Positions 25,060 to 46,759 are shown, numbered from the stretch's first letter. The stretch: 64,000 nucleotides of DNA from Squalus acanthias (GCA_030390025.1 CM059431.1:143098001-143162000); one strand, 5' to 3'. Numbers and translations: made by a program. The notes: a model not told the origin generated them from the letters alone.

Positions 25060-25136
25060 TTTATTGTAATATAGTTTATCAAGTTGTATTTCAAAACTGA
25101 AACTTTGGTTATATAAGGAGAAACTAATAGTTTATT
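25060..25136 (-). terminator. Two AATAAA polyadenylation signals downstream of the mucin exon
   Basis: TTTATT on the plus strand at 25060-25065 and 25131-25136. Confidence 0.45.
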
Positions 25137-25329: not shown

Positions 25330-26000
25330 TGATATGACCAGAGATGATGTATCTGATTTAGTAGATGGTGAGATTGTTATTGTACTGACCAGAGAAGATG
25401 GTGAAACTGCTTTTGTACCGACCAGAGAAGATGTATCTGATTTAGTAGATAGTGAGGGTGTCATTGTACTGACCAGAGAAGATGTATCTGATTTAGTAGA
25501 TGGTGAAGGTGCTATTGTACTGACCAGAGAAGATGTATCTGATTTAGTAGATGGTGAGGGTGTTATTGTACTGACCAGAGAAGATGTATCTGATTTAGTA
25601 GATGGTGAGGGTGTTATTGTACTAACCAGAGAAGCTGTATCTGATTTAATAGATGGTGAGGGTGTTATTGTACTGACCAGAGAAGATGTATCTGATTTAG
25701 TAGATGGTGAAGGTGCTAGTGTACTGACCAGAGTAGGTGTATCTGATTTAGTAGATGGTGAGGGTGTTATTGTACTGAACAGAGAAGATGTATCTCATGT
25801 AGTAGATGGTGAAGGTGCTACTGTACGGACCAGAGAAGATGTATCTGATTTAGTAGATGGTGAGGGTGGCATTGTACTGACCAGAGAAGATGTATCTGAT
25901 TTAGTAGATAGTGAAGGTGTTATTGTACTGACCAGATGAGGTGTATCTTATTTAGTAGATGTTAAAGGTGTTATTGAACTGACCAGAGAAGATGTATCTG
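25330..26000 (-). repeat. 51-bp (17-codon, SSLVSTITPSPSTKSDT) tandem repeat downstream of the stop codon; probable 3' UTR or formerly coding tail
   Basis: About 13 copies; Ser/Thr-rich on the minus strand but with an internal TGA near 25796. Confidence 0.8.
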
Positions 26001-26248
26001 ATTTAGAAAATGGTGAAGGTGCTATTCATCTCATCAGGGAAGAAGAATCTATGCTGAAATATAGTGAGGTGCTATTGAAATTGAGAGATGATGTATCCGA
26101 ATCAATAGATGATGAAGCTGCTTCTCTACTCGCCTGTGAATGATGTAGCCTGACTTAGAGATGATGAACGTGCTGTAATACTGATCTGGAGTGTTGTAGC
26201 CTGATTAGTGGATGAGAGTGGTACTATTCTGAACTGGGATGGTGTAGC

Positions 26249-29200
26249 CTAATTAATAGATGATGATGGTGCTGTACTGACCTGGGATGGTGTAGTCTGA
26301 TTAATAGATGATGATGGTGCTGTACTGACCTGGGATGGTGTAGTCTGATTAACAGATGATGATGGTGCTGTATTGACCTGGGATGGTGTTGTCTGATTTA
26401 TAGATGATGATGATGATGCTGTATTGACCTGGGATGGTGTAGTCTGATTTATAGATGATGATGGTGCTGTATTGACCTGGGATGGTGTAGTCTGCTTTAT
26501 AGACGATGATGGTGCTGTATTGACCTCGGATGTTGTAGTCTGATTTATAGATGATGATGATGCTGTATTGACCTGGGATGGTGTAGTCTGATTTATAGAT
26601 GATGATGGTGCTGTATTGACCTGGGATGGTGTAGTCTGCTTTATAGACGATGATGGTGATGTATTGACCTGGGATGGTGTAGTCTGATTTATAGAGGTCG
26701 ATGGTGCTGTATTCACCTGGGATGGAGTAGTCTGCTTTATAGATGATGATAGTGCTGTATTGACCTGGGATGGTGGAGTCTCATTTATAGATGATGATGG
26801 TGTTGTATTGACCTGGGATGGTGGAGTCTGATTTATAGATGATGATGGCGCTGTATTGACCTGGGATGGTGTAGTCTGTTTTATAGACGATGATGGTGAT
26901 GTATTGATCTGGGATGGTGTAGTCTGATTTATAGAGGTCGATGGTGCTGTATTCACCTGGGATGGAGTAGTCTGCTTTATAGATGATGAACGGATTCTAG
27001 CACTGACCTGGGATTTTTTAGACACCGCAAAAGTTAATGTCAATGCTGAATGTAAAGCCGGAAGCAGCATTGGTCTCATAGTGACAGCTGATGACTGTTG
27101 CATGGTTCTACCTGTCAGGGAGGGTGGAAACACATTGTTGTTTTCGGTCGATGATGGTGCCTTTACCTTGTTGGAAGACGGAGGCACATTCGCACTGGAC
27201 AAGCTGGGCACACTCGCACTGCTCACGATAGGTACAGTCTCACTGGTCAGTCTGGGCACACTCGCACTGCTCACGATGGGCACAGTCTCAGTGGTCACGA
27301 TGGGCACATTCTCACTGGTCATGATGGGCAGAGTCTCACTGGTCACGATGGGCACAGTCTCACCGGTCACGATGGGCACCGTCTCACTGTTCACGATGGG
27401 CAAAGTCTCACTGGTCACGATGGGCAGATTCTCATTGGTCACGATGGGCACAGTCTCACCGGTCACGATGGGCACCTTCTCATTGGTCACGATGGGCAGA
27501 GTCTCAACAGTCACGATGGGCACCGTCTCATTGGTCACGATGGGCACCGTCGCATTGGTCACGATGGGCAGAGTCTCACCGGTCACGATGGGCACAGAGT
27601 CACTGGTCACGATGGGCAGATTCTCATTGGTCACGATGGGCACAGTCTCACTGGTCACGATGGGCACAGTCTCACTGGTCACGATGGGCACAGTCTCACT
27701 GGTCACGATGGGCACAGTCTCACTGGTCACGATGGGCACAGTGTCACTGGTCACGATGGGCACAGTCTCACTGGTCACGATGGGCACAGTCTCACTGGTC
27801 ACGATGGGCACAGTCTCAGTGGTCACGATGGGCAGATTCTCATTGGTCACGATGGGCACATTCTCATTGGTCACGATGGGCAGATTCTCACTGATCACGA
27901 TGGGCAGAGTCTCACTGGTCACGATGGGCACAGTCTCACTGGTCACGATGGGCACAGTCTCACTGGTCACGATGGGCACTGTCTCACTGGTCACGATGGG
28001 CAGATTCTCATTGGTCACGATGGGCAGATTCTCATTGGTCACGATGGGCACAGTCTCACTGGTCACGATGGGCACAGTCTCACTGGTCACGATAGGCACT
28101 GTCTCACTGGTCACGATGGGCAGATTCTCATTGGTCACGATGGGCAGATTCTCATTGGTCACGATGGGCACAGTCTCACTGGTCACGATGGGCACAGTCT
28201 CACTGGTCACGATGGGCACAGTCTCACTGTTCACGATGGGCAGATTCTCAGTGGTCACGATGGGCACCGTCTCACTGGTCACGATGGGTACGGTCTCAGT
28301 GGTCACGATGGGCAGATTCTCATTGGTCACGATGGGCACAGTCTCATTGGTCACGATGTGCAGATTCTCACTGATCACGATGGGCACAGTCTCAGTGGTC
28401 AAGATGGGCACAGTCTCAGTGGTCACGATGGGCACAGTCTCAGTGGTCACGATGGGCACAGTCTCAGTGGTCACGATGGGCACAGTCTCACTGTTCACGA
28501 TGGGCAGATTCTCAGTGGTCACGATGGGCACAGTCTCACTGGTCACGATGGGCAGATTCTCATTGGTCACGATGGGCACAGTCTCACTGGTCACGATGGG
28601 CACAGTCTCACTGGTCACGATGGGCACAGTCTCACTGGTCACGATGGGCACAGTCTCACTGGTCACGATGGGCACAGTGTCACTGGTCACGATGGGCACA
28701 GTCTCACTGGTCACGATGGGCACAGTCTCACTGATCACGATGGGCACAGTCTCAGTGGTCACGATGGGCAGATTCTCATTGGTCACGATGGGCACATTCT
28801 CATTGGTCACGATGGGCAGATTCTCACTGATCACGATGGGCAGAGTCTCACTGGTCACGATGGGCACAGTCTCACTGGTCACGATGGGCACAGTCTCACT
28901 GGTCACGATGGGCACAGTCTCAGTGGTCACGATGGGCAGATTCTCATTGGTCACGATGGGCACAGTCTCATTGGTCACGATGTGCAGATTCTCACTGATC
29001 ACGATGGGCACAGTCTCAGTGGTCAAGATGGGCACAGTCTCAGTGGTCACGATGGGCACAGTCTCAGTGGTCACGATGGGCACAGTCTCAGTGTTCACGA
29101 TGGGCACAGTCTCACTGTTCACGATGGGCAGATTCTCAGTGGTCACGATGGGCACAGTCTCACTGGTCACGATGGGCAGATTCTCATTGGTCACGATGGG

Positions 29201-32200
29201 CAGATTCTCATTGGTCACGATGGGCACAGTCTCACTGGTCACGATGGGCACAGTCTCACTGGTCACGATGGGCACAGTCTCACTGGTCACGATGGGCAGA
29301 TTCTCAGTGGTCACGATGGGCACAGTCTCACTGGTCACGATGGGCACAGTCTCACTGGTCACGATGGGCACAGTCTCACTGGTCACGATGGGCAGATTCT
29401 CAGTGGTCACGATGGGCACAGTCTCACTGGTCACGATGGGCACAGTCTCAGTGGTCACGATGGGCAGATTCTCATTGGTCACGATGGGCACAGTCTCATT
29501 GGTCACGATGTGCAGATTCTCACTGATCACGATGGGCACAGTCTCAGTGGTCAAGATGGGCACAGTCTCAGTGGTCACGATGGGCACAGTCTCAGTGGTC
29601 ACGATGGGCACAGTCTCAGTGTTCACGATGGGCACAGTCTTACTGTTCACGATGGGCAGATTCTCAGTGGTCACGATGGGCACAGTCTCACTGGTCAAGA
29701 TGGGCAGATTCTCATTGGTCACGATGGGCACAGTCTCACTGGTCACGATGGGCACAGTCTCACTGGTCACGATGGGCACAGTCTCACTGGTCACGATGGG
29801 CACAGTGTCACTGGTCACGATGGGCACAGTCTCACTGTCACGATGGGCACAGTCTCACTGGTCACGATGGGCACAGTCTCAGTGGTCACGATGGGCAGAT
29901 TCTCATTGGTCACGATGGGCACAGTCTCATTTGTCACGATGGGCACAGTCTCACTGGTCACGATGGGCACAGTCTCAGTGGTCACGATGGGCAGATTCTT
30001 ATTGGTCACGATGGGCACATTCTCATTGGTCACGATGTGCAGATTCTCACTGATCACGATGGGCACAGTCTCAGTGGTCAAGATGGGCACAGTCTCAGTG
30101 GTCACGATGGGCACAGTCTCAGTGGTCACGATGGGGACAGTCTCACTGGTCACGATGGGCACAGTCTCAGTGGTCACGATGGGCACAGTCTCTGTGGTCA
30201 CGATGGGCACAGTCTCATTGTTCACGATGGGCAGATTCTCACTGGTCACGATGGGCACAGTCTCACTGGTCACGATGGGCACAGTCTCAGTGGTCACGAT
30301 GGGCACAGTCTCACTGGTCACGATGGGCACATTCTCACTGGTGACGATGGGCACAGTCTCACTGTTCACGATGGGCAGAGTCTCACTGATGACGATGGGC
30401 ACAGTCTCACTGTTCACGATGGGTACATTCTCATTGGTCACGATGGGCACAGTCTCATTGGTCACGATCGGTGCAGTCTCACTGGTCACGATGGGCACAG
30501 TCTCACTGGTCACGGTGGGCACAGTCTCATTGGTCACGATGGGTAGAGTCTCACTGGTCACGATGGGCACAGTCTCACTGGTCACGATGGGTACAGTCTC
30601 ATTGGTCACGATGGGCAGAGTCTCACTGGTCACGATGGGCACAGTCTCACTGATCACGATGGGCACAGTCTCGCTGGCCACGGTGGGCACAGTCTCATTG
30701 GTCACGATGGGCACAGTCTCACTGGTCACGATGGGTACAGTCTCATTGGTCACGATCGGTGCAGTCTCACTGGTCACGATGGGCAGAGTCTCACTGGTCA
30801 CGATGGGTACAGTCTCATTGGTCACGATGGGCACAGTCTCACTGATCACGATGGGTACAGTCTCACTGGTCACGATGGGTACAGTCACACTGGTCACGCT
30901 GGGTACAGTCTCACTGATCACGATGGGCACAGTCTCACTGGTCACGATGGGTACAGTCTTACTGGTCACGGCGGGCACAGTCTCACTGGTCACGATGGGC
31001 ACAGTCTTACTGATCACGATGGGCACAGTGTCACTGGTCACGATGGGTACAGTCTTACTGGTCACGGCGGGCGCAGTCTCACTGGTCACAATGGGTACAG
31101 TCATACTGGTCACGTTGGGTACAGTCTTACTGGTCACGGCGGGCACAGTCTCACTGGTCACGATGGGTACAGTCTTACTGGTCACGGCGGGCACATTCTC
31201 ACTGGTCACGATGGGTACAGTCACAAAGGTCACGATGGGCACAGTCTTACTGGTCACGACGGGCACAGACTCACTGGTCACAATGGGTACAGTCACACTG
31301 GTCACGATGGGCAGATTCTCACTGGTCACGACGGGCACAGTCTCACTGGTCACGATGGGCAGAAACTCACTGGTCACGATGGGCACAGTCTCACTGGTCA
31401 CGACGGGCACAGACTCACTGGTCACGATGGGTACAGTCACACTGGTCACGATGGGCACAGTCTCACTGGTCAAGATGGGCAGATTCTCATTGGTCACGAT
31501 GGGCACAGTCTCACTGGTCACGATGGGCACAGTCTCACTGGTCACGATGGGCACAGTCTCACTGGTCACGATGGGCAATGTCTCACTGGTCACGATGGGC
31601 ACAGTCTCACTGGTCACGATGGGCACAGTGTCACTGGTCACGATGGGCACAGGCTCACTGGTCACGATGGGCACAGTCTCAGTGGTCACGATGGGCAGAT
31701 TCTCATTGGTCACGATGGGCACAGTCTCACTGGTCACGATGGGCACAGTCTCACTGGTCACGATGGGCACAGTCTCAGTGGTCACGATGGGCAGATTCTC
31801 ATTGGTCACGATGGGCACATTCTCATTGGTCACGATGTGCAGATTCTCACTGATCACGTAGGGCACAGTCTCAGTTGTCAAGATGGGCACAGTCTCAGTG
31901 GTCACGATGGGCACAGTCTCAGTGGTCACGATGGGGACAGTCTCACTGGTCACGATGGGCACAGTCTCAGTGGTCACGATGGGCACAGTCTCTGTGGTCA
32001 CGATGGGCACAGTCTCACTGGTCACGATGGGCAGATTATCATTGGTCACGATGGGCACAGTCTCAGTGGTCACGATGGGCACAGTCTCACTTGTCACGAT
32101 GGGCAGATTCTCACTGGTCACGATGGGCACAGTCTCAGTGGTCACGATGGGCACAGTCTCAGTGGTCACGATGGGCACAGTCTCACTGGTCACGATGGGC

Positions 32201-33914
32201 ACATTCTCACTGGTGACTATGGGCACAGTCTCACTGTTCACGATGGGCAGAGTCTCACTGATGACGATGGGCACAGTCTCACTGTTCACGATGGGTACAG
32301 TCTCATTGGTCACGATGGGCACAGTCTCATTGGTCACGATCGGTGCAGTCTCACTGGTCACGATGGGCACAGTCTCACTGGTCACGGTGGGCACAGTCTC
32401 ATTGGTCACGATGGGTAGAGTCTCACTGGTCACGATGGGCACAGTCTCACTGGTCACGATGGGTACAGTCTCATTGGTCACGATGGGCAGAGTCTCACTG
32501 GTCACGATGGGCACAGTCTCACTGATCACGACGGGCACAGTCTCGCTGGCCACGGTGGGCACAGTCTCATTGGTCACGATGGGCACAGTCTCACTGGTCA
32601 CGATGGGTACAGTCTCATTGGTCACGATCGGTGCAGTCTCACTGGTCACGATGGGCAGAGTCTCACTGGTCACGATGGGTACAGTCTCATTGGTCACGAT
32701 GGGCACAGTCTCACTGATCACGATGGGTACAGTCTCACTGGTCACGATGGGTACAGTCACACTGGTCACGCTGGGTACAGTCTCACTGATCACGATGGGC
32801 ACAGTCTCACTGGTCACGATGGGTACAGTCTTACTGGTCACGGCGGGCACAGTCTCACTGGTCACGATGGGCACAGTCTCACTGATCACGATGGGCACAG
32901 TCTCACTGGTCACGATGGGTACAGTCTTACTGGTCACGGCGGGCGCAGTCTCACTGGTCACGATGGGTACAGTCTTACTGGTCACGTTGGGTACAGTCTT
33001 ACTGGTCACGGCGGGCACAGTCTCACTGGTCACGATGGGTACAGTCTTACTGGTCACGGCGGGCACATTCTCACTGGTCACGATGGGTACAGTCACAAAG
33101 GTCACGATGGGCACAGTCTTACTGGTCACGACGGGTACAGACTCACTGGTCACGATGGGTACAGTCACACTGGTCACGATGGGCAGATTCTCACTGGTCA
33201 CGACGGGCACAGTCTCACTGGTCACGATGGGCAGAAACTCACTGGTCACGATGGGCACAGTCTCACTGGTCACGACGGGCACAGACTCACTGGTCACGAT
33301 GGGTACAGTCACACTGGTCACGATGGGCAGATTCTCACTGGTCACGACGGGCACAGACTCACTGGTCACGATGGGCACAGTCTCACTTGTCACGATGGGC
33401 AGAATCTCACTGGTCACGATGGGCACAGTCTCACTGGTCACGATGGGTACAGTCTCACTGGTCACGATGGGCACAATCTCACTGGTCACGATGGGTACAG
33501 TCTCACTAGTCACGATGGGCACAGTCTCAGTGGTCACGATGGGCACAGTCGCACTGTTCATGACGGGTGCCATCGTACTGGTCACGATAGGAATGGTCAC
33601 ACTAGTCATGAAGGGCACAATCGCACTGATCCAATAATCCATAATTGTGGATAAACTGAAAGCCCGTAAGGATGCTGTAGAAGTTGGAGGCTGTGCTGTT
33701 GAACTGGGGTGTGGACCTACTCTACCAAGTGAAGAGGAGGTTTCCATTGATGCAGGGTGAATGGGCGATCGAGGCGCAGTTGAACTTCTCATGGACGTGG
33801 TTGTACTTTTGATGCGGTGGTTCACAATCCTGGAGTTGAGAGAAAGTGGATTCTGGGATTCGGTGAGCGTCGGCAGCCCATTGGTCGGGGAATGCGCTCT
33901 GGTCATAGTTGTCA
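26249..33914 (-). CDS. Exon 7 (terminal) of transcobalamin-alpha/mucin gene: giant PTS mucin domain; 1-bp frameshift at ~29837
   Basis: Acceptor TTTCTCCTACTTCGCACAG| at 33915-33916, phase 1, in frame with ORF 29815-33942. About 265 x 24-nt VTSETVPI units, then about 16 x 48-nt SQVNTAPSSSINQTTP units; TAG at 26249-26251. Confidence 0.8.
27190..33620 (-). repeat. 24-bp coding tandem repeat (plus-strand unit GGTCACGATGGGCACAGTCTCACT) with higher-order duplications
   Basis: Directly visible; rare variants recur at an offset of 1872 bp. Confidence 0.97.
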
Positions 33915-33960
33915 CTGTGCGAAGTAGGAGAAACAATGTCAAAAGATCATGGGAGGCAAC

Positions 33961-34149
33961 GGGCAGTAAAGTTGGACTTGGGCAAAGATGGAAAACAGGG
34001 AGAATCGCATTTGCCAGCCGTTTTGCAACACGCCTGATATCCGGTTCTGTTGGAAATAGTGGAATGAATATCGGGGTTTATAAAGAAAGAAACGGGAGAC
34101 CGATGACATAACGCCTGTTTTGCGCCTTTGCACTTGTCCAATTTCACCC
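33961..34149. mobile_element. Palindromic MITE-like element
   Basis: Imperfect inverted ends (..AAAGTTGGAC / GTCCAATTTCACCC). Confidence 0.45.
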
Positions 34150-34927
34150 ACAACTTCTAGAGACACGCTCAAAATCAGCGCCTGTGAAAAGTGGAGCTCA
34201 GGCACAAACCAGCTCTGCATTCCAGTTAATGTGACCATTGTCATATGTGAAGATCCCTGAGGATATCTACATTGGTGAACCTCCCGCTGGGAGTGAGGCC
34301 AAGCAGATGGCTCAGGGCTTCCAATTTATTCGCTTAGAAAACTGAGCAAACATAAAGGATTCAGGAAGGTCAAGGGTTGAATGGGTAAAATCCCCGCTTC
34401 AGTGCTCCTGGCAAATACCCAGGAGAAAATATCATGAAACTGGACAGTGATTTAAAACTAACAACGACGAATTGTTAGGATCTGGAATGCACTGACTGAA
34501 AGTGGGGTGGAAGCAGATTCAATAGTAACTTTCAAAGGGGATTCGGATAAATATTTCTAGAGGAAAACTGCAGGGCTATGGGGAGAGGGCAGGGCACTGG
34601 AACTAATTGGATTGCTCTTTCGAAGCGCCGACACAGGCACTATGGGTCGAATGGCCTCATTCTACACTCTATCCTTCCAGGATTCATTTCCATTTGCTAT
34701 TTCTTCTTCATTTTGATTCCTAACCCAATGTGAGTAGCTTCCCATCTGTACAGCCTGGGAGCAGCGCATCCAGGAAATTCTGGAGCTGAGCTTTGCATTC
34801 TGGGAACGAAACCTGCCCGATTTTCCTTCCGTTATTTTCGTTGCAGTTTTTGTTCGGGCCGTGTAATCTTCGCGCCACATTCTCCCTTATTAACCCCTCC
34901 TAGGGAGTTCTTAAAGCTGAGAGGCGT

Positions 34928-35106
34928 GGTGAAATTCGATAAGGATGGGGACGCAAGACAGGAGAAATCGCTCTCACCAACCATTATGGACACGCCCGAT
35001 ATCCAGTTCTTTTGAAGTCAATGGGACCGAATATGGGGCGGAGCGGATATCGGACACCTGATGCAACACCGTACGTTTTGCGAACTCGCCAATGTCGAAT
35101 TTCACC
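34928..35106. mobile_element. MITE with 12-bp TIRs
   Basis: GGTGAAATTCGA (34928-34939) / TCGAATTTCACC (35095-35106). Confidence 0.65.
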
Positions 35107-35145
35107 GTCCCCCATACTTAGTCCGGTATGTTGCTGTACCCTTAC

Positions 35146-35332
35146 CTTTATATACAGGACAGGTTATCTTGTTCACGTCCAGGTAACTTTTTCCTCCCAG
35201 GGCTATCGCCACCTGTGACATTGTTGTAAGTTTTTCCCAGTTTCCCCGAGAAATTTCATGCACCATTTTCTGCACAGATTTGGTGCAATTATAGACACGT
35301 GAGGTGAACACGTTTATGTTTTCGTCCAGGGC
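35146..35332 (-). CDS. Exon 6, transcobalamin/intrinsic factor-like alpha domain
   Basis: AG|GCC...AAAG|GTAAGG, 187 nt, phase 0->1. ALDENINVFTSRVYNCTKSVQKMVHEISRGNWEKLTTMSQVAIALGGKSYLDVNKITCPVYK matches the family WNC....I.QG.F.NP....Q.LP.L.GKTYLDV...C. Confidence 0.9.
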
Positions 35333-35489
35333 CTGGAGTGTAAAGAAGGTAAAACTAATTTTAATATTTAATTTTAATGATCCGGAGATCATTTAGTCTG
35401 AGCACATATGAACTCTGTTTCAAAGCACTGTAATATAAAGTGGGAGTGAATGGAAATAAAAATCGGGAGAGATCGGGCTGCAGATTCGC

Positions 35490-36590
35490 CATCACCTGTT
35501 TTACACCTTAAAGAGTGTGCAGTGACCCAGGGACGTGGGAGTTAATGTCATAGTTCCCTGAAGGTGGCAGGACATATTGAGAGAATGGTTAGCAATGCCA
35601 ATGTCATAAATAAAGGTATTGAGTACAAAAGTAGAAAAGTTATGCTCAGCCTCTTTGAAGCTCTGGTTAGACCACAACTGGCGTGTTGCATCCAGTTGTG
35701 GTCACCACAGTTTAGGAAGGATATGAAGGACCTTGAGAGAATGCAGAGGAGATTTACCATAATGGTTCCGGGGATGGGGTATCTTAGCTACAAGGACAGT
35801 TTGGAGAAGTTGGATTTGTTTTCATTAGAGCAAAGGAGGTTGAGGGATGATTTGATGGAGATTTACAAGATTATGACGGGTTTGGATAGGCTAGACGGGG
35901 ACAGGCTTATCCCACTAGTTGATGGTACAAGGACTAGGGGACAAAGATTTAAGGTTTTGTGCAAGAGGTACAATGGGGGATGTGAGGAAAAAAAAATTTT
36001 ATGCAGCGAGTGGCGAAGACCTGGAATTCGCTGCCGACGAAAGTTGTGGAAGCGGAGACACTCAATGCTTTCACGGGGAGACTGGGTAGGCACTTGATGG
36101 AATAAACTTGCAGGGCTACGGGGATGGAGCGGGGGAATGGGACTGACTGGATGTTCTACAGAGAGCCGGATTGGACTCGATGGGCCGAATGGCCTCGTTC
36201 TGTGCCGTTATGAATCTATTACTCTATGATTCTATTACTGAAAGGTGAACTAAAAGAGCTCTTCAAAATTATGAATGGATTTCATAAGGTAAACGTAGAG
36301 AAGACGTCTCCACTTGCAGGGTGAGTCCAAAACTAGGGTCCATACATATAAGATAGCCACTCATAAACCCAACAAGGAATTTAGGAGAAACTTCTTCACT
36401 AGAGAGTGGATAGAAGTTGTAACTCGCTATCACAAGGAGTAGCATAGGAAGCGAATAACAAAGATTGATTTAAGGGAAATATATATGAAGGAGAAAGGAA
36501 TAGAAGGATATGGTGATAGGGTTAGTAGGGCGGGAGGAGCCTCGTGTGGCCCACAAACACACGAATGACCTGTTTCTGTACTGAACATTC
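35490..36590 (+). mobile_element. Two adjacent CR1 3' fragments
   Basis: ORF 35564-36097: LVRPQLACCIQLWSPQFRKD..LFSLEQRRLRDDL. Confidence 0.85.
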
Positions 36591-37181
36591 CATTTAAAGA
36601 TTGTCCTCTTGGAATTTGAAGTCAACCAGTTTCTCAATATAACTCAACATCCTGTTTACATTGTTTATCGCCACTTCAGTGTATTGATTTGATGAACATT
36701 GAATCATTCGCATTCTGTTGTGATTACTTTAACTGTGAGCGATGATGTACAATGGCCAATTTTGAATTAACCGGCCATTGTATACCATGCCCGATTTTCC
36801 TTTGCATTGAATCCATGGAAGGTAAAATCTGGTGCCTGTAAATTGAAGAGCAATTGGATATTACCCATTTTACACCTTCACCAAAAGTTAAAATCACCCC
36901 TTAAATCTATTTCAACCAATGCCCTCCGCTCCTGGCGAGTTCTATCCCATGAAAGATATCGAGGTGTCTCAGAATCTTCCACTAGGATGTATTTTGCAAT
37001 ACTTCACACTGAACGTCATCTGAACAAATTGAACACCGATACACCAATACTGCAAAATCGTGTCTATGCTCTAATTGTTTAAGGTCTATCGCTTAATATG
37101 TTGTGAAGAAGCTGTTAATTACTAACTGCCCTTAGCTCTAATTAAATCAGAATCCTATTTTCTAATTTCACATCACAATAC

Positions 37182-37357
37182 CTGCATGGCCAGCCCTGTA
37201 CTGCTCAAGCTCCCAATGGTCCCGTCCTCTCTCACTTCACTTAGAATCCGCCTCATTATCCACATTAACGACTTTGCGATGTCAAGCCGAGATCTGCCTC
37301 TTGGTTGTTGCGAGTGTATCCAACACCTCAGACTAAGTGCCGCGGTGGCCATTGTAA
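37182..37357 (-). CDS. Exon 5, transcobalamin-like alpha domain
   Basis: TGTTGTAG|TT..ATGCAG|GTATTG, 176 nt, phase 1->0. VTMATAALSLRCW...EDGTIGSLSSTGLAMQ matches the family DT.AMA.LA..C and G..GN.YSTGLAMQ. Confidence 0.92.
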
Positions 37358-37839
37358 CTACAACACAGGAAACAATTACCATCGGTTCATGGAGTAAATT
37401 TGACAGGAGGGTCGGTAAATGGAGGACACAGATGTACGATATTGGCAAATGAATCTGAGGGGAGATGGGGAGTCATTTTTGCTTTTTTACACAGCGAGTT
37501 GTTATAATCTGGAATGCACTGCCTGAACGGGTGATGGAAGCAGATTCAATGGTGACTTTGAAAAGGGAATTTGATATATACTTGATAAGGATACAAATAC
37601 AGGGTTATGTCCTATGGGGAAAGAGAAGGGAGAGTGGGATTAATTGGGGAGCTATTTCAAAGAGCCACCACAGGTACGATGGGCCAACAGGCCTCCTTCT
37701 ATAAGTTTAGATGATTCTATGATGTCCGAAGCCTCCCATGCACAAGCGATCCGATCACCCATGGATGAAGAGACGCTTCCCAAATTTCCCATCATTTTCC
37801 TCACAACTGGTGTCCAATGGACTCCCTCCCAGCACTCTT

Positions 37840-38995
37840 CATCAATCGTAACCGGTGAATGCAAATAACCTCTTTCCGAACTCCATCAAATGGATATCTT
37901 CACCAATCGTAACCGGTGAACCCAGTAACCTCTTTCAAAACTCCATCAAATGGATATCTTCACCGACCGTAACCGGTGAACCCAGTAACCTCTTTCAAAA
38001 CTGCATCAAATTGATATCTTCACCGACCGTAACCTGTGAACACAGGTAACCTCTTTCAAAACTGCATCAAATGGATATCTTCACTGACCGTAACCTGTGA
38101 ACCCCGGTAACCTCTTTCAGAACTCCATCAAATGGATATCTTCACCAATCGTAACTGGTGAACGCAGGTAACCTCATTCAAAACTCCATCAAATGGATAT
38201 CTTCACCAAGCATAACCTGTGAACCCAGATAACCTCATTGAAAACTCCATCAAATGGATATCTTCACCAATCGTAACCCGTGAACCCAGGTAACCTCATT
38301 CAAAACTCCACCAAATGGATATCTTCACCGACCGTAACCTGTTAACCCAGGTAACCTCTTTCAAAACTGCATCAAATGGATATCTTCACTGACCGTAATC
38401 TGTGAACCCCGGTAACCTCTTTCTATAACTCCATCAAATGGATATCTTCACTAACCGTAACCTGTGAACCCCGGTTAATTCATTCAAAACTCCATCAAAT
38501 GGATATCTTCACCAACCGTAACCTGTGAACCCAGGTAACCTCATTCAAAACTCCATCAAATGGATATCTTCATCGACCGTAACCTGTGAACACAGGTAAC
38601 CTCTTTCAAAACTGCATCAAATGGATATCTTCACCGACCGTAACCTGTGAACCCGGCTAACCTCTTTCCAAACTCCATCAAATGGATATCTTCACTGACC
38701 ATCACCTGTGAACCCAGATAACCTCTTTCTATAACTCCATCAAACATATACCTTAACCGACCGTAACCTGTGAACACCGGAAACCTCTTTCTAAAACTCC
38801 ATCAAATGGATATCTTCACCGACCGTAACCTGTGAACTCTGGTAACCTCTTTCAAAACTACATCAAATGGATATCTTCACTAACCGTAACCTCTGAACCC
38901 CCCGGGTAACCGCTTTCAAAACTCCATCAAATGGATATCTTCACCGACCGTAACCTGTGAACCCAGATAACCACTTTAAAAACTCCATCAAATGG
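37840..38995. repeat. 60-61-bp intronic minisatellite (ACCGTAACCTGTGAACCCAGGTAACCTCTTTCAAAACTCCATCAAATGGATATCTTCACCG)
   Basis: About 19 tandem copies. Confidence 0.95.
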
Positions 38996-39042
38996 GTATT
39001 TTTGAAACTATAAAATGAAACATCTTGTCTGCTCAGACATAC

Positions 39043-39198
39043 CTACTGTTAATTCTTTCCCGTGATGAGCGATCTTCCTGAGATGAGCCCGGATGAAATT
39101 ATGAATGAGAAAGCCCGGGACAGGTTCCTCCTCCTGACACAGCGCCAGGATCGCCAGGCTGGCTTCAGTAAAGGCCTTTAGAGAATATCCAGCGTTTT
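39043..39198 (-). CDS. Exon 4, transcobalamin-like alpha domain
   Basis: TATTTACAG|AA..GTAG|GTATGT, 156 nt, phase 1->1. ENAGYSLKAFTEASLAILALCQEEE..KELTV matches the family P.TNYYQ.SL..LALC ... SV(D). Confidence 0.88.
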
Positions 39199-39689
39199 CT
39201 GTAAATACAGTGACAGACTCCAATGTTGGTGATATGCTCCACATCTGACAAACGGGAGACACAGATATGAGAATTCCTCACTAGTTCGTCCCCGATCCTC
39301 TCTGTGTGCCAGAAATCAGGCCAAGGATTTAAATGAATAAATTGAATTGGTGTAGAATTTACAGCACAGAAGGAGGCTATTCGGCCCATCAGGTCTAATT
39401 ATGCTCCACATGAGCCTCCTCCTACCTTACTTCATCTCAGTCGAGCAGCTTATCCGAGGGAGCTTATTCATTTCTCCCTCATGAACTTGTCTAACTTCGC
39501 CTTAAATACATCTATACAATTCGCCTCAACTTCTCCTGTGTTAGCAAATTCCACATTCTCGCCACTCTTCGGGAAAATAAGTTTCTCCTGAATCCCCCAT
39601 TGTTTTTTAGTAGTGACTCTACAGCGGAGTAATGCTCTCCGGCATGGCTATCAAGTACACATGACAAATCCGATGATGTCCAGCTGAAT

Positions 39690-40190
39690 TCTACTAGAAG
39701 AATTATCACCAGTACGCTTTTATCGACACCAACACCTTGGCTGCCCGTGCTTGCAAACATCACACCACCACACCTAAGCCGCGAATATGCAGTGTCCATA
39801 GAATACAACCGCTACACCAGCAAAGACATGCCAATCCAGGCCGACTTGAACAATCTAGCACCAAACCGTCTCTAATCTAGAAGGCTATATTGGACCGTGG
39901 CCAAAGCCCTTCAGCGATCTCCCCTCAGCCTTGATGACTGATGGCGAAATGCTTGGAAGCATTGTGACGTACGGAATGGATTGCTTATAGAGGATCCCAA
40001 AGTACAAACTGAAGGATCAAACCTTCCTCGCAAACAGTGGACAACCATCAACCGCCTCAGAACCGGTCGCCACCTTCTAATTAGAAGGAAGATTAAAACA
40101 TCCCCATCATGAGACAGACTGTGAAGCTCCTAATCAGACCCTGGAGAACAGCATTGAGCACTGCCCTCAGAGGAAATTCGTAGGCAGCAT
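39690..40190 (+). mobile_element. RTE-like LINE 3' fragment
   Basis: Encodes STPTPWLPVLANITPPHLSR and QWTTINRLRTG-like motifs. Confidence 0.55.
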
Positions 40191-40194
40191 AAAT

Positions 40195-40665
40195 AAGAAT
40201 ATAAGAAATAGGAGCAGGATTAGGCCATTTGGCCCTTCGAGCCTGCTCAACAATTCAATAAGATTTATGTTATACTTCTACCTCATCTCAACTTTCCTGC
40301 ATTATCCCCATATCTCTTGATTCCCTTAATATTCAAAAATCTATCGATCTCTGTCTTGAATGTACTCAACGACTCAGCCAATTCCAAAGATTCGCCACCC
40401 TCTGAGTGAAGACATTTATTCTCATTTCAGTCCTAAATGGCAGACCCCTTATTTTGAGACTGTGACCCCTGGTTCTGGACTCCCCAGCCAGGGAAAACAT
40501 CCTCCCTACATTTACCCAGTCAAGCCCTGTAAGAATTGTGCATGTTTCAATTAGATCATCTCTCATTCTTCTAAACTCTAGAGAATATTGGCCTAGTCTA
40601 GTCAATCAGACCTCATAGGACAATCTCCCCATCCCAGGAACCAGTCTGGTGAACCTTCGTTGTAA
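40195..40665 (-). mobile_element. CR1 3' fragment
   Basis: ORF 40366-40605: LGQYSLEFRRMRDDLIET..FTQRVANLWN. Confidence 0.85.
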
Positions 40666-41109
40666 GAAATCCATGCTGTTACACTGGAATTTTTGGCATT
40701 GATATCTGATTTAGATATTGACATTGGATTTGCTTTGCTACTACCATACGAAAGAAGAAGTATCGACTACCTTATATTTATGGTCCCTAATTATAATCTC
40801 CTCTACAAGTGGAAACATCTGCTCTACTTCTACCCTGTAGAACCACTTCATCATTTTAAAGAGCTCTGTTAGCTCACTTTTCAATCATCTCTTTTCCAGA
40901 TGAAAGAGCCCCAGCGACTCCAGCCTTTCTTGATAAATAACATAGATAATAATAGATGAATAAATACATGCTACAAGGGTTTTATTTCACGGATATAATC
41001 ATAAACCATTGCCTTTATAAACCAGGAGTCAGCATTCCAATTCCCTTTAGGCCTGGAGTCAATTGGTTCTTTTAAAAAGTGCTGGATAAATGTTTGCACT
41101 TTAATGTGT

Positions 41110-43135
41110 TTGGAGGTTATGGGGAGAGATACAAACTGTGCGAGTAATTCTATTGGTGTTTACAGGGACATGTATGGACTGAGAAGGCAGTGGGATTGGA
41201 GGTTATGGGGAGAGATACAAACTGTGAAAGTAATTCTGTTGGTGTTTACAGGGACAGTTATGAACTGAGAAGGCAGTGGGATTGGAGGTTATGCGGAGCC
41301 GCCGACTGTTATGGGAATAGAACCGGAAATTGTTGCGATTAAAGCAGAATGAGGTGAGAATGAGGCTGGAGGTTATGCCGGGAGATACAGATTGGGTGTG
41401 ATTGCAGGTTATAGGGACAGGTACAGACTGAGATGTGAGTGTGATTGGAGGTTATAGGGACAGGAACAGATTGAGATGTGAGTGTGATTGGAGGTTATAG
41501 GGACAGGTACAGAATGAGATGTGAGTGTGATTGGAAGTTATAGGGACAGGTACAGAATGAGATGTGAGTGTGATTGGATGGTAAAGCGACAGGTACAGAC
41601 TGAGAGGTGAGTGTGATTTGATGTTAAAGCGACAGTTACAGACTGAGATGTGAGTGTGATTGGAGGTTATCGGGACAGGTACAGACTGAGATGGGAGTGT
41701 GATTGGAGGTTATAGGGAGAGGTACAGTCTGAGATGTGAATGTGATTGGAGGTTATGGGGACAGGTACAGACTGAGATGTGAGTGTGATTGGATGTTAAA
41801 CCGACAGGTACAGACTGAGATGTGAGTGTGATTGGATGTTATAGCGAAAGTTACAGACTGAGATATGAGTGTGATTGGATGTTATAGCGACAGTTATAAA
41901 CTGAGATGTGAGAGTGATTGCAGGTTATAGGGACTGGTACAGGCTGAAATGTTAGTGTGATTGGAGGTTATAGGGTCAGGTACAGACTGAGGTGGGAGTG
42001 TGATTCCTGGTTATGGAGAGAGGTACAGACTGAGATGTGAGTGTGATTGGAGGTTATATAGAGAGGTATAGACTGAGAAGTGAGTGTAATTGGAGGTTAT
42101 GGGGACAGGTACAGACTGAGATGTGAATGTGATTGGAGGTTATGGGGACAGGTACAGACTGAGATGTGTGTGTGATTGGAGGTTATGGGGACAGGTACAG
42201 ACTGAGATGGGAGTGTGATTGGAGGTTATAGGGACAGGTACAGACTGAGATGGGAGTGTGATTGGAGGTTATGAAGAGAGGTACAGACTGAGCTGTAAGT
42301 GTGATTGGAGGTTATAGTGTCAGGTACAGACTGAGATGTGAGTGTGATTCCTGGTTATGGAGAGAGGTACAGACTGAGATGTGAGTGTGATTGGAGGTTA
42401 TAGCGACAGGTACAGTCTGCGATGTGACTGTGATTGGAGGTTATGGGGACAGGTACAGGCTGAGATGTGAGAGTGATTGGAGGTTATGGGGACAGGTACA
42501 CAATGAGATGTGAGTGTGATTCCTGGTTATGCGGACAGGTACAGACTGAGGTGTGAGTGTGATTCCTGGTTATGGAGACAGGTACAGACTGAGATTTGAG
42601 TGTGATTGGAGGTTATGGAGAGAGTTACAAACTGAGATGGGAGTGTGATTGGAGGTTATGGAGAGAGGTACACACTGAGATGTGAGTGTGATTCCTGGTT
42701 ATGGGGACAGGTACAGACTGAGATGTGAGTTTGATTGAAGGTTATGGAGAGAGTTACAGACTGAGATGGGAGTGTGATTGGAGGTTATGGAGAGAGGTAC
42801 AGATTGAGATGTGAGTGTGATTCCTGGTTATGGGGAGAGGTACAGATTGAGATGTGATTGTGATTCCTGGTTATGGAGACAGGTACAGACTGAGCTGTGA
42901 GTGTGATTGGAGGTTATGGAGAGAGTTACAGACTGAGATGGGAGTGTGATTGGAGGTTATGGAGAGAGGTACAGACTGAGATGTGAGTGTGATTCCTGGT
43001 TATGGGGAGAGGTACAGATTGAGATGTGAGTGTGATTCCTGGTTATGGAGATAGGTACAGACTGAGATGTGAGTGTGATTGGAGGTTATGGAGAGAGGTA
43101 CAGGCTGAGATTTGAGTGTGATTGGTGGTTTTCAG
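41110..43135. repeat. 43-bp intronic minisatellite (GGAGGTTATGGGGACAGGTACAGACTGAGATGTGAGTGTGATT)
   Basis: About 40 tandem copies plus degenerate leading units. Confidence 0.95.
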
Positions 43136-43206
43136 CTTGTGTTTGCTGAAAGATGCATCTCAATCTCTGTGCAAATAACATGCCTAAAGCATGAGTCGAA
43201 ACTTAC

Positions 43207-43377
43207 CTTTAGAAGTTGTTATCCTAGGTATTTGATGCAGTTCACTGTAGAGCCTCTCACGTAGCACCTCCACCAAATTCACCTCCTTGTTCTCTGCTGA
43301 TATCTTGGCTGAGTTCCGACAAGAGGATCTGAAGGCTAAGATGTAGAAAACCAACTTGTCTATGGGAAAGTCTTCAC
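43207..43377 (-). CDS. Exon 3, transcobalamin-like alpha domain
   Basis: CCGCCAG|GT..AAAG|GTAAGT, 171 nt, phase 1->1. GEDFPIDKLVFYILAFRSSCRNSAKISAENKEVNLVEVLRERLYSELHQIPRITTSK matches the family GQLALY.LAL.SSC.DP....V.L...L; not in the ORF track. Confidence 0.9.
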
Positions 43378-44329
43378 CTGGCGGCAGAGGAACAAACGAG
43401 ATTCAGTTTGTTCTGACTGGGTCCATCAATACCTAACTGGTTAGTGATTATAAATCCCTCCTCTACACTCTGAAGACTTGTATTAATATTCCACCTCATT
43501 TTAACTCTCAAAAACAACTCAAAGTGCTTCACGTGTAATACATTATTTGAAGTGCAGACACCCTTGTTATATCGACCAATTCTGGAGCCATTTTGTGGAC
43601 AGCAATATCCCACAAACAGCAAAGAAGTGAATAGCCAGGTAACCTGTTCTAAATTCTTCACCAGCGACACGGTAAATGGATTAACTGGTAATGTATTTCA
43701 TTGGTACTTGTGGCATCTTGTGTCCAATTGTTTGTCGAGGTTGTCTATGAAAGATAAATGGCTGCATTTCATTGGCTGTGAAACAACTGCACAAGAGAAA
43801 TGTAAGTTTCTCCCCCTTCACTCTCCTTCTCTCTTTAAATTACTTTGGGTGTTAGCTGGGGAATAAATGTTGGTCAAGACCCCGGCAGCACTCTCCCTTC
43901 TTGTTCCAATAAAGCCGTTTCATCTTCAAATTCCACAAGAAAAGATTCAGGGGATAATTTTAGATTTAGACGATGTTGTAAAATAGGCGACTCCGATTAG
44001 GCCGCCGATTAAAGATCCCGCCCGATTTTCACCTCCATTGGAAAGAAAAATCAAGCATGGTGTAAAAGGGCAGCTAATGCAATTTCGAGCAGGGGACAGT
44101 GTAATGATTTCTGATTTCAAAACAACGAGAGAGCAAGAAGCAGAACCACCGTGCAGGATGGGGGATATAGGGTTCAGGTGGAAGAACAAGGGAATGTTTA
44201 GAGCTGCTAAAATTCCCATCATAGTATCAGGAACAAAGGTGGTGCAAGAAATGTCAGCTCGGCCCATTCACCTGAGGGCAGAATTCCAGCGAGAAGTCTC
44301 CCTCCCTCCCTCTCTTCATCTTCCTCTGT

Positions 44330-44376
44330 ATGTGTCTGTTTCCCTCTTTCTCCATCTCACTCTTTCTCTTTCTCAA

Positions 44377-44409
<33 letters not shown>

Positions 44410-44625
44410 GACTCGGATATATATGCACACACATACACATATAAACACAAACAGACACGTATACACTCACAGAAACACATATACATACAGAAGCACAGAC
44501 ACAGAAACGCATAGACATACACACACACAATTGCAAAGAAACCCACGGAACGATATACACAAAGAAACATGGAAACACACACACACATAAACATATACAC
44601 ACAAACACACGCAAACATATACAGA
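44330..44625. repeat. (CT)/(CA)-rich microsatellite
   Basis: Degenerate dinucleotide runs. Confidence 0.85.
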
Positions 44626-45306
44626 AACTTCAATGGCACATTGCTGCAAGTTAATCCGTGGGATCTTGATTCAAATGGTTGTGAAATTGTAGACTGTAAT
44701 AAAGTGAACTGCACTGTGGAAAAGATGTAGAATTGCATGAGGTGTGTCAACTTTCAACATTGGCTCTCATAAAATGGGCGCCATCGACAGTCATATAAGC
44801 TGCTATTTTTAAATTACCCTGTTTATTTTAAATGGACGAAATCCTCTATTCGGAACATTGGAATTTCTGGGGAGACTAAAGACCAAGGTGCATCTAATTC
44901 TGCTTCTACTATCCTTGTAGTCGCATGACAATGGGGTTGTTGTATAATAATAGTAATCAGTCTCTATAAATTAGTTTTCAACAGACACAGACACGAGGCG
45001 AGGAATACCCAGTGCTGGTGAGCTTTGTGAACCATAGGTCCAAAATCACCGGTTCCTCCCAAGCACGCTACACTGACCATGTGTAAAGTCTCAAATTACA
45101 CTTATACTCTATCTCAAATGTTACGTTTTGATGTCAAACAGAGTAATACGACATGAACGGGCTAGAAGTTGGGTCACTATTATCATGGGGCCATTCTTAG
45201 GTTCAAATTTCCTTCATTAACAATAGTTTGCCAGCCACTCATCCTGTCAACAGTAATAAAGATTTAATCCAGATACATCCACATTACCTAATAGTTGACT
45301 CCTTAC

Positions 45307-45489
45307 CTGATCCAACATTTCTAACAGCCGCCTCAGTCAGCCTTCGGAGAATGTCTTGTTCACTCTGCAGATCATTCTCACTCCCCAGGCGCAGGACAAT
45401 GAAAGCCCCGGGGTCTGGCTCCACGGACAGATCACTCAGTTTCCTCTCTATACTCCGAAGAAGTGATTTCTGCTGATTATCTGGAGCCG
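45307..45489 (-). CDS. Exon 2, transcobalamin-like alpha domain
   Basis: GATTCCAG|CG..TCAG|GTAAGG, 183 nt, phase 1->1. TAPDNQQKSLLRSIERKLSDLSVEPDPGAFIVLRLGSENDLQSEQDILRRLTEAAVRNVGS matches the family PNPS..I.LRL...HNL..E. Confidence 0.85.
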
Positions 45490-45559
45490 CTGGAATCCAC
45501 AACCCAATTATTAATCCACTCGCGTGTAATGGACATTAAGATAGCAGTAACACTTAAAG

Positions 45560-46520
45560 AGCTTGAGGATAATCAGAAGGCGCATGTGGTCGGTGAACAC
45601 AACATATGAACTTACAGTAAGAACATGCATTGTGGTAAACAGTGAAGAGGATAGTAGCAGACTTCAGGAGGACACAGACAGACTGGTGCAATGGGCAGTC
45701 ACATTGTAGATGACATTCAATGCAGAGAAACCTGAAATGGTGCATTTTGAAAGAAGAATGAGGAGAGGTAATATAAACTAAATAGTACAATTGTATTCGG
45801 GGCGCAGGAAGAGAGAGACCTCGGGTTCACGTACACAAATCTTTGAAGGTGGAAGGACATATTGACAAATCTTTTTAAAAAAATGACGGGATCCTTGGCT
45901 TTCCAAATAGAGGCACAGAGTAGAAAAGCAATGAATTTGTGGCAAACATTTATAAATCATTAGTTATGCCTCAGTTAGTGCATTGTGTCCAATTCTGGGC
46001 AACAAACTTTAGTCAAGGCCTTGGAGAGGGTGCAGAGGAGATTTACCAGAATGGTAGCAGCGATGAGGGACTTCAGTTATGTGGAGAGACTAGACAAGCT
46101 GGGGTTGTTCTCCTTAGAGCAGAGAGTATTAAAGGGCGATTTAATAGAGGTGATCAATATTATGGAGGTGTTTGATAGAGTAAATAAGAAGAAATTTCTT
46201 CCACTTGCAGGAGCTTGTCGATCACACAGATTTAAGGTAATTGGCAAAAGAACCAGAGGGTAAATTAGGAGATTTTTTGAATGCAGCGATGTTGTTGCGG
46301 TCTGGAATGCAGTCCCTGAAACGGTGCTGGAAGCATCTTCCATAGTAACTGTCAAAAGGGGTTTGGAATGTGTTCTTGAGGGGAGAAAAATGCAGGGCCT
46401 GGGGAAAGAGCAGGGTGGGTGGGACTGATTACACTTTCAAAGAGCAGGCAGAGGTACGATGGGCCGAATGGGCTCCTTCTGTACGATAAGATTCTAAGTT
46501 TCTATAATTCTATGATTCTA
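45560..46520 (+). mobile_element. CR1 3' fragment
   Basis: IYKSLVMPQLVHCVQFW / ALERVQRRFTRMV..LGLFSLEQR; TCTATGATTC-type tail. Confidence 0.85.
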
Positions 46521-46600
46521 AATTATGATAAAAACTCAGCTTAACGATAAACATCAGGTTTAGATTAAACATTGGGCACTAAACAACAAATCGCACTTAC

Positions 46601-46670
46601 TGCATTGCTGGGATGTTGCCGGGTACGAGGCACTGAAGAGCAGGAGTGTGAGGGTCATCACCGGGGGCAT
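46601..46670 (-). CDS. Exon 1 (signal peptide) of transcobalamin-alpha/mucin gene
   Basis: ACAATGC start; MPPVMTLTLLLFSASYPATSQQC then |GTAAGT, 70 nt, phase 1; hydrophobic core plus the first conserved Cys. Confidence 0.75.
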
Positions 46671-46759
46671 TGTTGACCGTGAGCTGCGGGCCCTGTGTTA
46701 GACCCTCCTGAGTGCAGTAGGGAGGTAGACTGGGCAGCGTGACTTGGACTGTAACCGGG

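Follow-up and report, generated by a model that had tools for sequence, protein, structure and literature searches.

A transcobalamin-type alpha domain joined to a giant mucin-like repeat exon in a shark and ray gene family

A 64,000-nucleotide stretch of the Squalus acanthias genome (GCA_030390025.1 CM059431.1:143098001-143162000; hereafter the window, positions counted from its first letter) carries on its minus strand a gene in which six small exons encoding a transcobalamin/intrinsic-factor alpha domain are spliced to one giant repeat exon. We consider it likely that the gene belongs to a TCN1/GIF-derived family of sharks and rays that combines an alpha-domain head with this giant repeat exon, has lost the beta domain, and probably encodes a secreted glycoprotein that no longer clamps vitamin B12. 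An earlier reading of the window, made from the sequence alone, had proposed a secreted alpha-only transcobalamin-mucin chimera. That architecture is supported by the analyses below, but it is not a one-off, since the family counts at least 13 genes in this genome.

Gene structure and the junction to the repeat exon

The gene begins with six GT-AG exons (Table 1), of which exon 1 supplies an ATG start and a GT donor, and exons 2–6 each have an AG acceptor and a GT donor. Together these exons amount to 943 nt, join in frame without a stop, and yield a spliced product of 314 aa. Aligning two predicted Mustelus proteins, the closest relatives found (P0001, XP_078087636.1; P0002, XP_078087635.1), to the window with tblastn gave borders identical to those of exons 1–6. 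The sequence-only reading had described the same six exons, with the same coordinates and the same stop-free 943 nt, and all of this was reproduced on the minus strand. The phase-compatible acceptor it had placed at 33914 was confirmed to open into a repeat exon of about 7.7 kb (exon 7), and both of its protein lengths were recovered, namely 1680 aa as assembled and, with a 1-bp deletion in the repeats corrected, 2869 (codon positions over the joined 8609 nt). As assembled, the window copy encodes the alpha head followed by 1366 repeat residues.

The junction between exons 6 and 7 was sought in five small public runs, none of them recorded as RNA and their RNA status only guessed, four of which were aligned to 33600-46700. 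One contig of 193 nt at depth 2.6 (X2 record 9), from a run that is probably RNA, lies on 33816-33914 and 35146-35239 and joins 35146 to 33914 exactly at base level. Another contig of the same run (X2 record 14) breaks off precisely at the donor of exon 3, and 64 of its letters map elsewhere. Exon 4 and several intron bins were uncovered in the alignment, and nothing was concluded from these gaps. None of the 63 matches to P0001 in the assembly of the window spans more than one exon, as a retrocopy would, so no retrocopy accounts for the bridging contig. We therefore take the exon 6/exon 7 junction as observed, at low depth and possibly from a paralog.

Exon 7 opens with about 95 non-repeat codons, which lead into a 24-bp tandem array, a non-repeat spacer, and a 48-bp array (arrays called by Tandem Repeats Finder). 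Of the minus-strand frames of the 24-bp unit, two contain stops; the third is stop-free and continues the frame of exon 6. On the plus strand, this array is open in every frame, and the length of an open reading frame (ORF) by itself thus proves nothing here. The encoded tail is composed of T (22%), V (22%), P (12%), S (10%), and E (10%), with about 0.1% Cys, and no Pfam family was found in either of the window's repeat ORFs. Serine and threonine make up 37.5% of the 8-residue unit, which is somewhat under classical mucin levels by the usual criteria.

At the 3′ end, the sequence-only reading had the ORF terminate at the TAG at 26249, followed by two AATAAA signals. All of these exist, with two amendments. 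The TAG results from a change of CAG to TAG in one of the 48-bp units and is common to 6 of the 11 copies in which the boundary between the 48-bp and 51-bp arrays could be located via a unique anchor; a second stop, 41 codons further on and present in 10 of these 11 copies, is probably the older end of the ORF. Between the TAG and the AATAAA signals, which are the earliest on this strand once the arrays have ended, lies about 1.1 kb of DNA that includes a 51-bp array.

The 51-bp array is probably 3′ untranslated region (UTR) or formerly coding, and could also be reached by an undetected splice or frameshift. It has a single open minus-strand frame, Ser/Thr/Pro-rich (S-T-K-S-D-T-S-S-L-V-S-T-I-T-P-S-P), which stays open for 200–400 codons in several paralogs (among loci L013-L023), never in the frame of the main ORF. 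By eye, we saw no GT donor from which an intron could connect this open frame with the mucin frame.

Table 1. Features of the gene in the window, from 5′ to 3′ on the minus strand
Feature	Position	Strand	Remarks
Exon 1	46601..46670	-	ATG; hydrophobic, signal-peptide-like N-terminus, aligning with the signal peptides of relatives; first conserved Cys; tblastn match to P0002 residues 3-20
Exon 2, alpha domain	45307..45489	-	AG/GT; PF01122 profile 29-79; tblastn match; splice sites intact in 5/5 copies
Exon 3, alpha domain	43207..43377	-	PF01122 profile 90-128; tblastn match; X2 record 14 ends exactly at 43207
Exon 4, alpha domain	39043..39198	-	PF01122 profile 136-178; tblastn match; KAFTE where canonical binders have TNYYQ
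Exon 5, alpha domain	37182..37357	-	PF01122 34 bits, profile 183-240; VVT where VDT is conserved; STGLAMQ present
Exon 6, alpha-domain end (..YLDVNKITCPVYK)	35146..35332	-	PF01122 38 bits, profile 253-297; 76% identity to P0001
Exon 7 start	33629..33914	-	Acceptor CACAG followed by TG; about 95 non-repeat, Ser/Thr/Pro-rich codons
24-bp tandem array, 268.6 copies	27183..33628	-	Encodes (I-V-T-S-E-T-V-P)n; frame in phase with exon 6
24-bp unit with one C lost	29833..29856	-	GTGACCAGT -> GTGACAGT; frameshift, stop 5 codons on
48-bp array, 17.6 copies	26140..26989	-	Encodes (N-Q-T-T-P-S-Q-V-N-T-A-P-S-S-S-I)n; same frame as the 24-bp array
TAG	26249..26251	-	Inside a 48-bp unit
Probable older family stop	26126..26128	-	..G-E/Q-stop
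51-bp array	25396..26026	-	Different frame; 3 stops in the window copy
AATAAA signals (2)	25131-25136, 25060-25065	-	

Alpha domain retained, beta domain absent

The Pfam family Cobalamin_bind (PF01122) matches five of the six exons translated singly, collinearly over positions 29-297 of its 317-position profile, a pattern well beyond what is expected at random. The best E-values are 1e-9 and 2e-8, and exons 5 and 6 each score above the 25-bit cut-off; exon 5 also shows a weak match to the intrinsic factor structures 2pmv and 3kq4. The spliced peptide, joined by script for comparisons, is 67% identical (E 2.8e-151) to P0001, annotated as ‘cobalamin binding intrinsic factor-like’ in Mustelus asterias, and 57% identical to P0003 of Narcine bancroftii. 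Identity is 35% (E 5e-60) to P0006, a canonical two-domain shark CBLIF-like protein, and 25–30% to little-skate TCN1 (E 9e-44), cat CBLIF, beaver TCN1, and bat TCN2. Its six cysteines (23, 104, 162, 205, 268, and 310) align with the canonical cysteine columns, which in the alpha domain form three disulfides.

The fold was examined on P0001 with an AlphaFold2 model built from a 54-sequence alignment (predicted local distance difference test, pLDDT, 85.3); a single-sequence model with pLDDT 43 was discarded. The 14 top PDB matches listed for this model were all intrinsic factor (IF), transcobalamin, or haptocorrin (E 6e-11 to 3e-8), with 2pmv_A at E 6e-11 and the alpha-only chain 2pmv_B at a target TM-score of 0.81, and the relative is accordingly predicted to form an alpha6/alpha6 helical barrel. 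The peptide identities, the exon borders, and the matches of the P0001 model together indicate that the alpha domain is genuine and complete.

The beta domain was searched for with a hidden Markov model (HMM) of the last 112 residues of 34 canonical proteins, run on six-frame ORFs of the window and 32 loci. The HMM was positive at the canonical-type loci L025, L027, L028, and L029 (E 2e-14 to 1e-3), with three beta exons each in L025 (contig C1824) and L029 (C13) and one or two in L027 and L028 (C474). It found nothing in the 64-kb window, including the 26 kb downstream of the gene, or in the 10 kb 3′ of exon 6 at 12 mucin-type loci (best E 19-48). Genome-wide, five matches were obtained with a shark beta-domain query; they fall on C1824 and C474, and C7, the contig of the window, has none. 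The Pfam model PF14478 (DUF4430) had no match in the whole genome and missed the canonical loci too, and it was set aside as too weak. The absence of a beta domain, as first proposed from the sequence, therefore stands for the window, 12 paralog loci, and C7, by searches that are positive at canonical loci. The canonical two-domain CBLIF-like genes are themselves multi-copy on the unplaced contigs C1824 and C474, with alpha and beta exons at no fewer than two places on each.

The motif TNYYQ is described, in the accessible text of Lopes-Marques et al. (2015, PMC4350170), as an alpha-domain signature that hydrogen-bonds the corrin ring. Canonical shark proteins have TNYYQ, SNYYQ, or TDYYQ at this position, whereas KAFTE is found in the window, KTFNE in Mustelus, and KVLTE in Narcine, directly preceded in all three by a 7-residue insertion. 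With the beta domain absent and TNYYQ replaced in three species, the head has probably lost the classical clamp and no longer grips cobalamin. Isolated alpha fragments of IF reportedly bind cobalamin far more weakly than beta fragments.

The window and the canonical binders TCN1/CBLIF thus share a signal peptide, a six-exon alpha domain predicted to form an alpha6/alpha6 barrel, six cysteines, the STGLAMQAL motif, and a branch of the tree described below. Unlike these proteins (PF01122 + PF14478), the window gene has neither a beta domain nor TNYYQ, sits on a long stem, and carries a repeat tail of more than 1,300 residues.

A multicopy family with relatives in other sharks and rays

Scanning the 3.7-Gb assembly with PF01122 (46 exon matches) and P0001 (63 exon matches) revealed 13 copies of the window-type exon 6, eight on C7 between 137.85 and 143.73 Mb in both orientations and five on small contigs. 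A fourteenth locus (C3762) is partial, with exons 2-4 only. We examined the 10 kb 3′ of exon 6 at 20 loci, 12 window-type and eight divergent. At all 12 window-type loci, exon 6 is followed after about 1.07 kb by the exon 7 seen in the window and then by its three array types, in which open stretches range from 335 to 1937 codons; neither exon 7 nor the arrays were found at the eight divergent loci (C1824, C474, C13, C12, C3652, and C2752). The exon 7 acceptor is intact in 11 of 13 copies, and the path from acceptor to array is free of stops in the window and in 10 of 12 paralogs. Across the non-repeat start of exon 7 in the 13 copies, the predicted frame holds two stops, compared with 16 and 66 in the other frames. 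These features argue for translation of exon 7, namely the phase of the junction, a frame maintained through the non-repeat stretches, the conserved stop, and the imperfect, open tail of a Narcine protein.

Individual copies depart from this pattern. In L021 (C3500) and L023 (C1065), the exon 7 acceptor has lost its AG, with CAATG in place of CACAG, and a single stop interrupts the non-repeat beginning of exon 7 in L021 and also in L024. Judged by these lesions, L021, L023, and L024 are likely dead.

Selection on the head was measured over exons 2-6 of the window and four of at least 12 paralogs, chosen from different subgroups (exon 1 left out). All 50 splice dinucleotides are kept in these five copies, there are no stops or indels, and the ratio of nonsynonymous to synonymous differences per site (pN/pS) is 0.37 (pN 0.023, pS 0.062). 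Among paralogs, purifying selection acts on the alpha exons, so the head most likely performs another task.

The same architecture occurs in a ray. P0003, named ‘mucin-2-like [Narcine bancroftii]’ in RefSeq (993 aa), has PF01122 at 72-374 followed by about 620 aa of imperfect T/S/P/V repeats; it contains no Pfam family besides PF01122, lacks a beta domain like the window gene, and falls in the same clade. Its repeats are degenerate, whereas the window has hundreds of near-perfect 8-residue units. P0003 was the sole longer relative with this head in a search limited to 579-2000 residues, and a close-homologue protein search with P0001 returned nothing beyond P0001 itself. A Chiloscyllium hypothetical protein (P0051) combines a partial head with a T/S/P/V-rich tail. 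Matches of the non-repeat exon 7 start to P0051 (E 0.008 and 0.014) were overlapping, non-collinear pieces and were not used as evidence; the same query gave nothing significant in Narcine.

The name given to P0003 invokes MUC2, with which it has no Pfam-detectable domain in common. Domains of gel-forming mucins (VWD/C8/TIL, cystine knot) were not found by Pfam in the window repeat ORFs, in P0003, or in window ORFs of at least 110 aa. What makes the window gene mucin-like is a long, single-exon, tandemly repeated region rich in Pro/Thr/Ser (PTS), with 268.6 and 17.6 copies of its two units.

A 40-row tree unites the window with Mustelus and Narcine in one clade (Shimodaira-Hasegawa-like approximate likelihood ratio test, SH-aLRT, 100) on a long stem of 1.0 changes per site. 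The sister group of this clade (support 95) is a stingray-sawshark pair with models that stop once the alpha domain is complete, and the tree assigns both to TCN1/GIF and separates them from TCN2 (group names checked on ten rows). Since shark and ray members fall in one clade, the lineage predates the shark/ray split.

The sister-clade models (P0008, P0094, and P0096 from stingrays, P0007 from a sawshark) end in ..D-N-L plus a few residues, have no tail, and carry a TDFYQ/TDYDQ motif. They represent either a second alpha-only lineage or incomplete gene models, and might correspond to the ‘Tcn3’ reported in the accessible text of PMC4350170. There, little-skate Tcn3 is described as an elasmobranch-specific, divergent binder with alpha and beta domains and high stomach expression (Lopes-Marques et al. 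2015). Compared by this description only, Tcn3 resembles the window family as an extra, fast-evolving, elasmobranch-only binder lineage and differs in being two-domain, with no repeat tail mentioned in that text.

A repeat has also arisen in the linker of a canonical-type protein. The CBLIF-like P0012 of Heterodontus francisci (450 aa) has a P/T/S/L-rich linker repeat of about 60 residues with L-T-L-P-S-P-N units; it differs from the window gene in having a beta domain, in the shortness of its repeat, and in belonging to another clade. P0012 shows the linker exon to be prone to such expansion. In the window, the +1 frame of the exon 7 start (33900-33914) reads D-N-Y-D, and the canonical exon 7 (locus L025, ~2750-2800) reads D-N-L-T from similar DNA. 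The ancestral linker exon, read in a shifted frame, may have given rise to the repeat frame, the D-N-Y/D-N-L match being very short.

These observations are consistent with the following history and product. The ancestor would have been a TCN1/GIF-type cobalamin-binder gene in the shark-and-ray lineage, which retained exons 1–6, with the signal peptide and a complete alpha domain with six cysteines, while its beta exons would have gone. Exon 6 would then have come to be spliced to a single giant exon whose 24-bp and 48-bp repeats encode an acidic, Thr/Ser/Pro/Val-rich PTS region of more than 1,300 residues, with almost no Cys and a length that varies greatly between copies. The predicted product would be secreted, non-gel-forming, and heavily O-glycosylated, with a folded alpha-domain head. 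Devoid of a cobalamin clamp, this head would most likely serve a different function, for example by binding some other ligand or partner in a secretion or on a mucosal surface. The window copy, with a frameshift in its array and private changes in its head, may be a decaying member.

The closest described process is mucinization, in which, according to the accessible text of Pajic et al. (2022, PMC9417175), lineage-specific mammalian mucins are born as secreted non-mucin proteins gain exonic PTS repeats. The window family is alike in its secreted non-mucin precursor and in a copy-number-variable PTS repeat confined to one exon. The cases in that text are mammalian and mostly involve proline-rich precursors of the SCPP locus, whereas the window family kept a folded ligand-binding domain and lost its partner domain. 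The words transcobalamin, TCN1, haptocorrin, and cobalamin do not occur in the main text of PMC9417175, and a term search of the main text of a paper on shark skin mucus proteomics (PMC10707392) found no cobalamin, transcobalamin, or intrinsic factor.

The sequence-only reading knew of no described protein with this architecture. Full-text literature searches, with coverage outside subscription journals, likewise found no cobalamin-binder head with a mucin-like repeat; the databases, on the other hand, already hold the Narcine ‘mucin-2-like’ protein by automatic annotation. The family is thus already auto-annotated under misleading names, yet found described nowhere. Pipelines label such genes ‘CBLIF-like’, ‘transcobalamin-2-like’, or ‘mucin-2-like’ and shorten their models, and as a result counts of B12-binder genes in cartilaginous fishes would mislead.

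What emerges is a lineage conserved since at least the shark/ray split, with an alpha-only head under selection, a lost corrin motif, a giant and variable repeat exon, and at least 13 copies. It offers a natural experiment on the alpha barrel acting alone and would clearly exemplify, outside mammals, the conversion of a folded ligand-binding protein into a mucin.

Alternative readings and the neighbourhood of the gene

Several observations weigh against a translated mucin-like tail, or against the window as a sound example of it. The array frames are broken in many copies, and the acceptor AG is lost in two. The non-repeat start of exon 7 is neutral among paralogs (pN/pS 1.02), with a divergence of 4.4% against 5.0% for intron 6; such an unconstrained stretch fits a disordered glycosylated linker and, equally, non-coding sequence. 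The bridging contig differs from the window at 5 of its 193 letters, possibly because it derives from a paralog, and comes from a run only guessed to be RNA, and two further contigs run from an exon into an intron (X1 record 1, 33901-34053; X2 record 15, 45318-45565). The likeness of the window tail to those of Narcine and Chiloscyllium is of low complexity or marginal, the Narcine match (30% identity, ungapped, E 8e-12) being weak for that reason. Both Mustelus models end right after exon 6, outside the mucin frame: P0001 closes with ..YKVQ-stop, and P0002 reads the exon 7 start in the +1 frame (DNYDYS..). We read these ends as model-building choices, judged from the protein models. Finally, the window copy carries the 1-bp deletion in its 24-bp array, and it differs from its nearest paralog (C7:140.63 Mb, exon 7 open for 1937 codons) by 10 nonsynonymous and 3 synonymous changes.

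That the family is real while the window copy itself is a pseudogene, or is decaying without a useful product, is a serious possibility, though one we place somewhat short of even. The lost C brings a stop within five codons, the changes relative to the nearest paralog correspond to a ratio of about 1 against 0.37 for the family, and about nine residue changes are private to the copy, one of which turns VDT into VVT by replacing an almost invariant Asp. Its 51-bp array, open in some paralogs, contains three stops. From its sequence the copy looks degraded and may be on its way out of the family. Nevertheless, its six alpha exons, splice sites, and exon 7 acceptor are all intact, the head and a long tail are still encoded as assembled, and the 1-bp deletion is possibly an assembly error. 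The TAG, too, occurs in another copy, L017, which apart from this stop maintains a fully open frame over 1937 codons.

For the head of the family as a whole, we regard it as unlikely, though worth keeping in view, that it serves as a corrinoid-handling module on a mucin stalk, with weak capture alone or together with a separate beta protein. To our knowledge, all described cobalamin carriers grip B12 between alpha and beta domains. If the idea were true, corrinoids would be concentrated or withheld in mucus, as a mucosal ‘nutritional immunity’ or uptake device without counterpart in other vertebrates.

It is improbable that the gene encodes only a short alpha-only protein, as in the Mustelus models, with the arrays being untranslated 3′UTR or a minisatellite open by chance. 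The ends of P0001 and P0002, the models of the stingray and sawshark sister clade, which also stop right after the alpha domain, the pN/pS of about 1 in non-repeat exon 7, and the ease with which tandem repeats stay open, as in the three plus-strand frames, would all agree with this. Against it, the observed junction of the window puts exon 6 in phase with the sole open minus-strand frame, and that frame crosses two non-repeat stretches and two different arrays before a stop kept in 10 of 11 copies. Moreover, the roughly 620 codons of imperfect repeats in Narcine are not expected to be open by chance, and the Chiloscyllium model likewise has a T/S/P/V tail.

We give still less weight to the idea that the beta domain remains in play, via exons outside the window or as a separate protein in trans, and that B12 binding is retained. 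Canonical two-domain paralogs are present in the same genome, the accessible text of PMC6257451 reports that the cleaved intrinsic-factor fragments IF30 and IF20 together still bind cyanocobalamin, and that of PMC4350170 mentions stand-alone DUF4430 proteins in teleosts. The searches above, however, found no beta exons in the window with its 26 kb of downstream DNA, in the 10 kb downstream of 12 paralogs, or on C7, the ORF ends at a conserved stop followed by poly(A) signals, and the corrin motif of the alpha domain is gone in all three species. An assembly artefact, in which a binder gene was misjoined to an unrelated minisatellite, is barely credible: long arrays are hard to assemble and several copies sit on small unplaced contigs, but the layout is identical at 12 of 12 loci, seven of them on a 160-Mb contig, the junction is present in an independent run, and the same architecture occurs in another species.

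The surroundings of the gene hold an immune-type gene and retroelements. In the 26 kb downstream, a domain scan of the window ORFs recognised no gene, only a LINE (long interspersed nuclear element) fragment at 8365-10725 on the minus strand, with reverse transcriptase over two ORFs and pieces of endonuclease. Upstream of the mucin-type gene, two adjacent ORFs at 52999-54458 on the plus strand match NACHT, NOD2 winged-helix, and NLRC4 HD2 domains (E 9e-27, 2e-14, and 4e-18), which by these domain matches mark part of an NLR-type innate-immunity gene. An 830-aa open frame at 57960-60449, also on the plus strand, encodes a reverse transcriptase (E 1e-8) and matches GIY-YIG weakly (E 5e-4); it looks like a Penelope-like retroelement and may be young.

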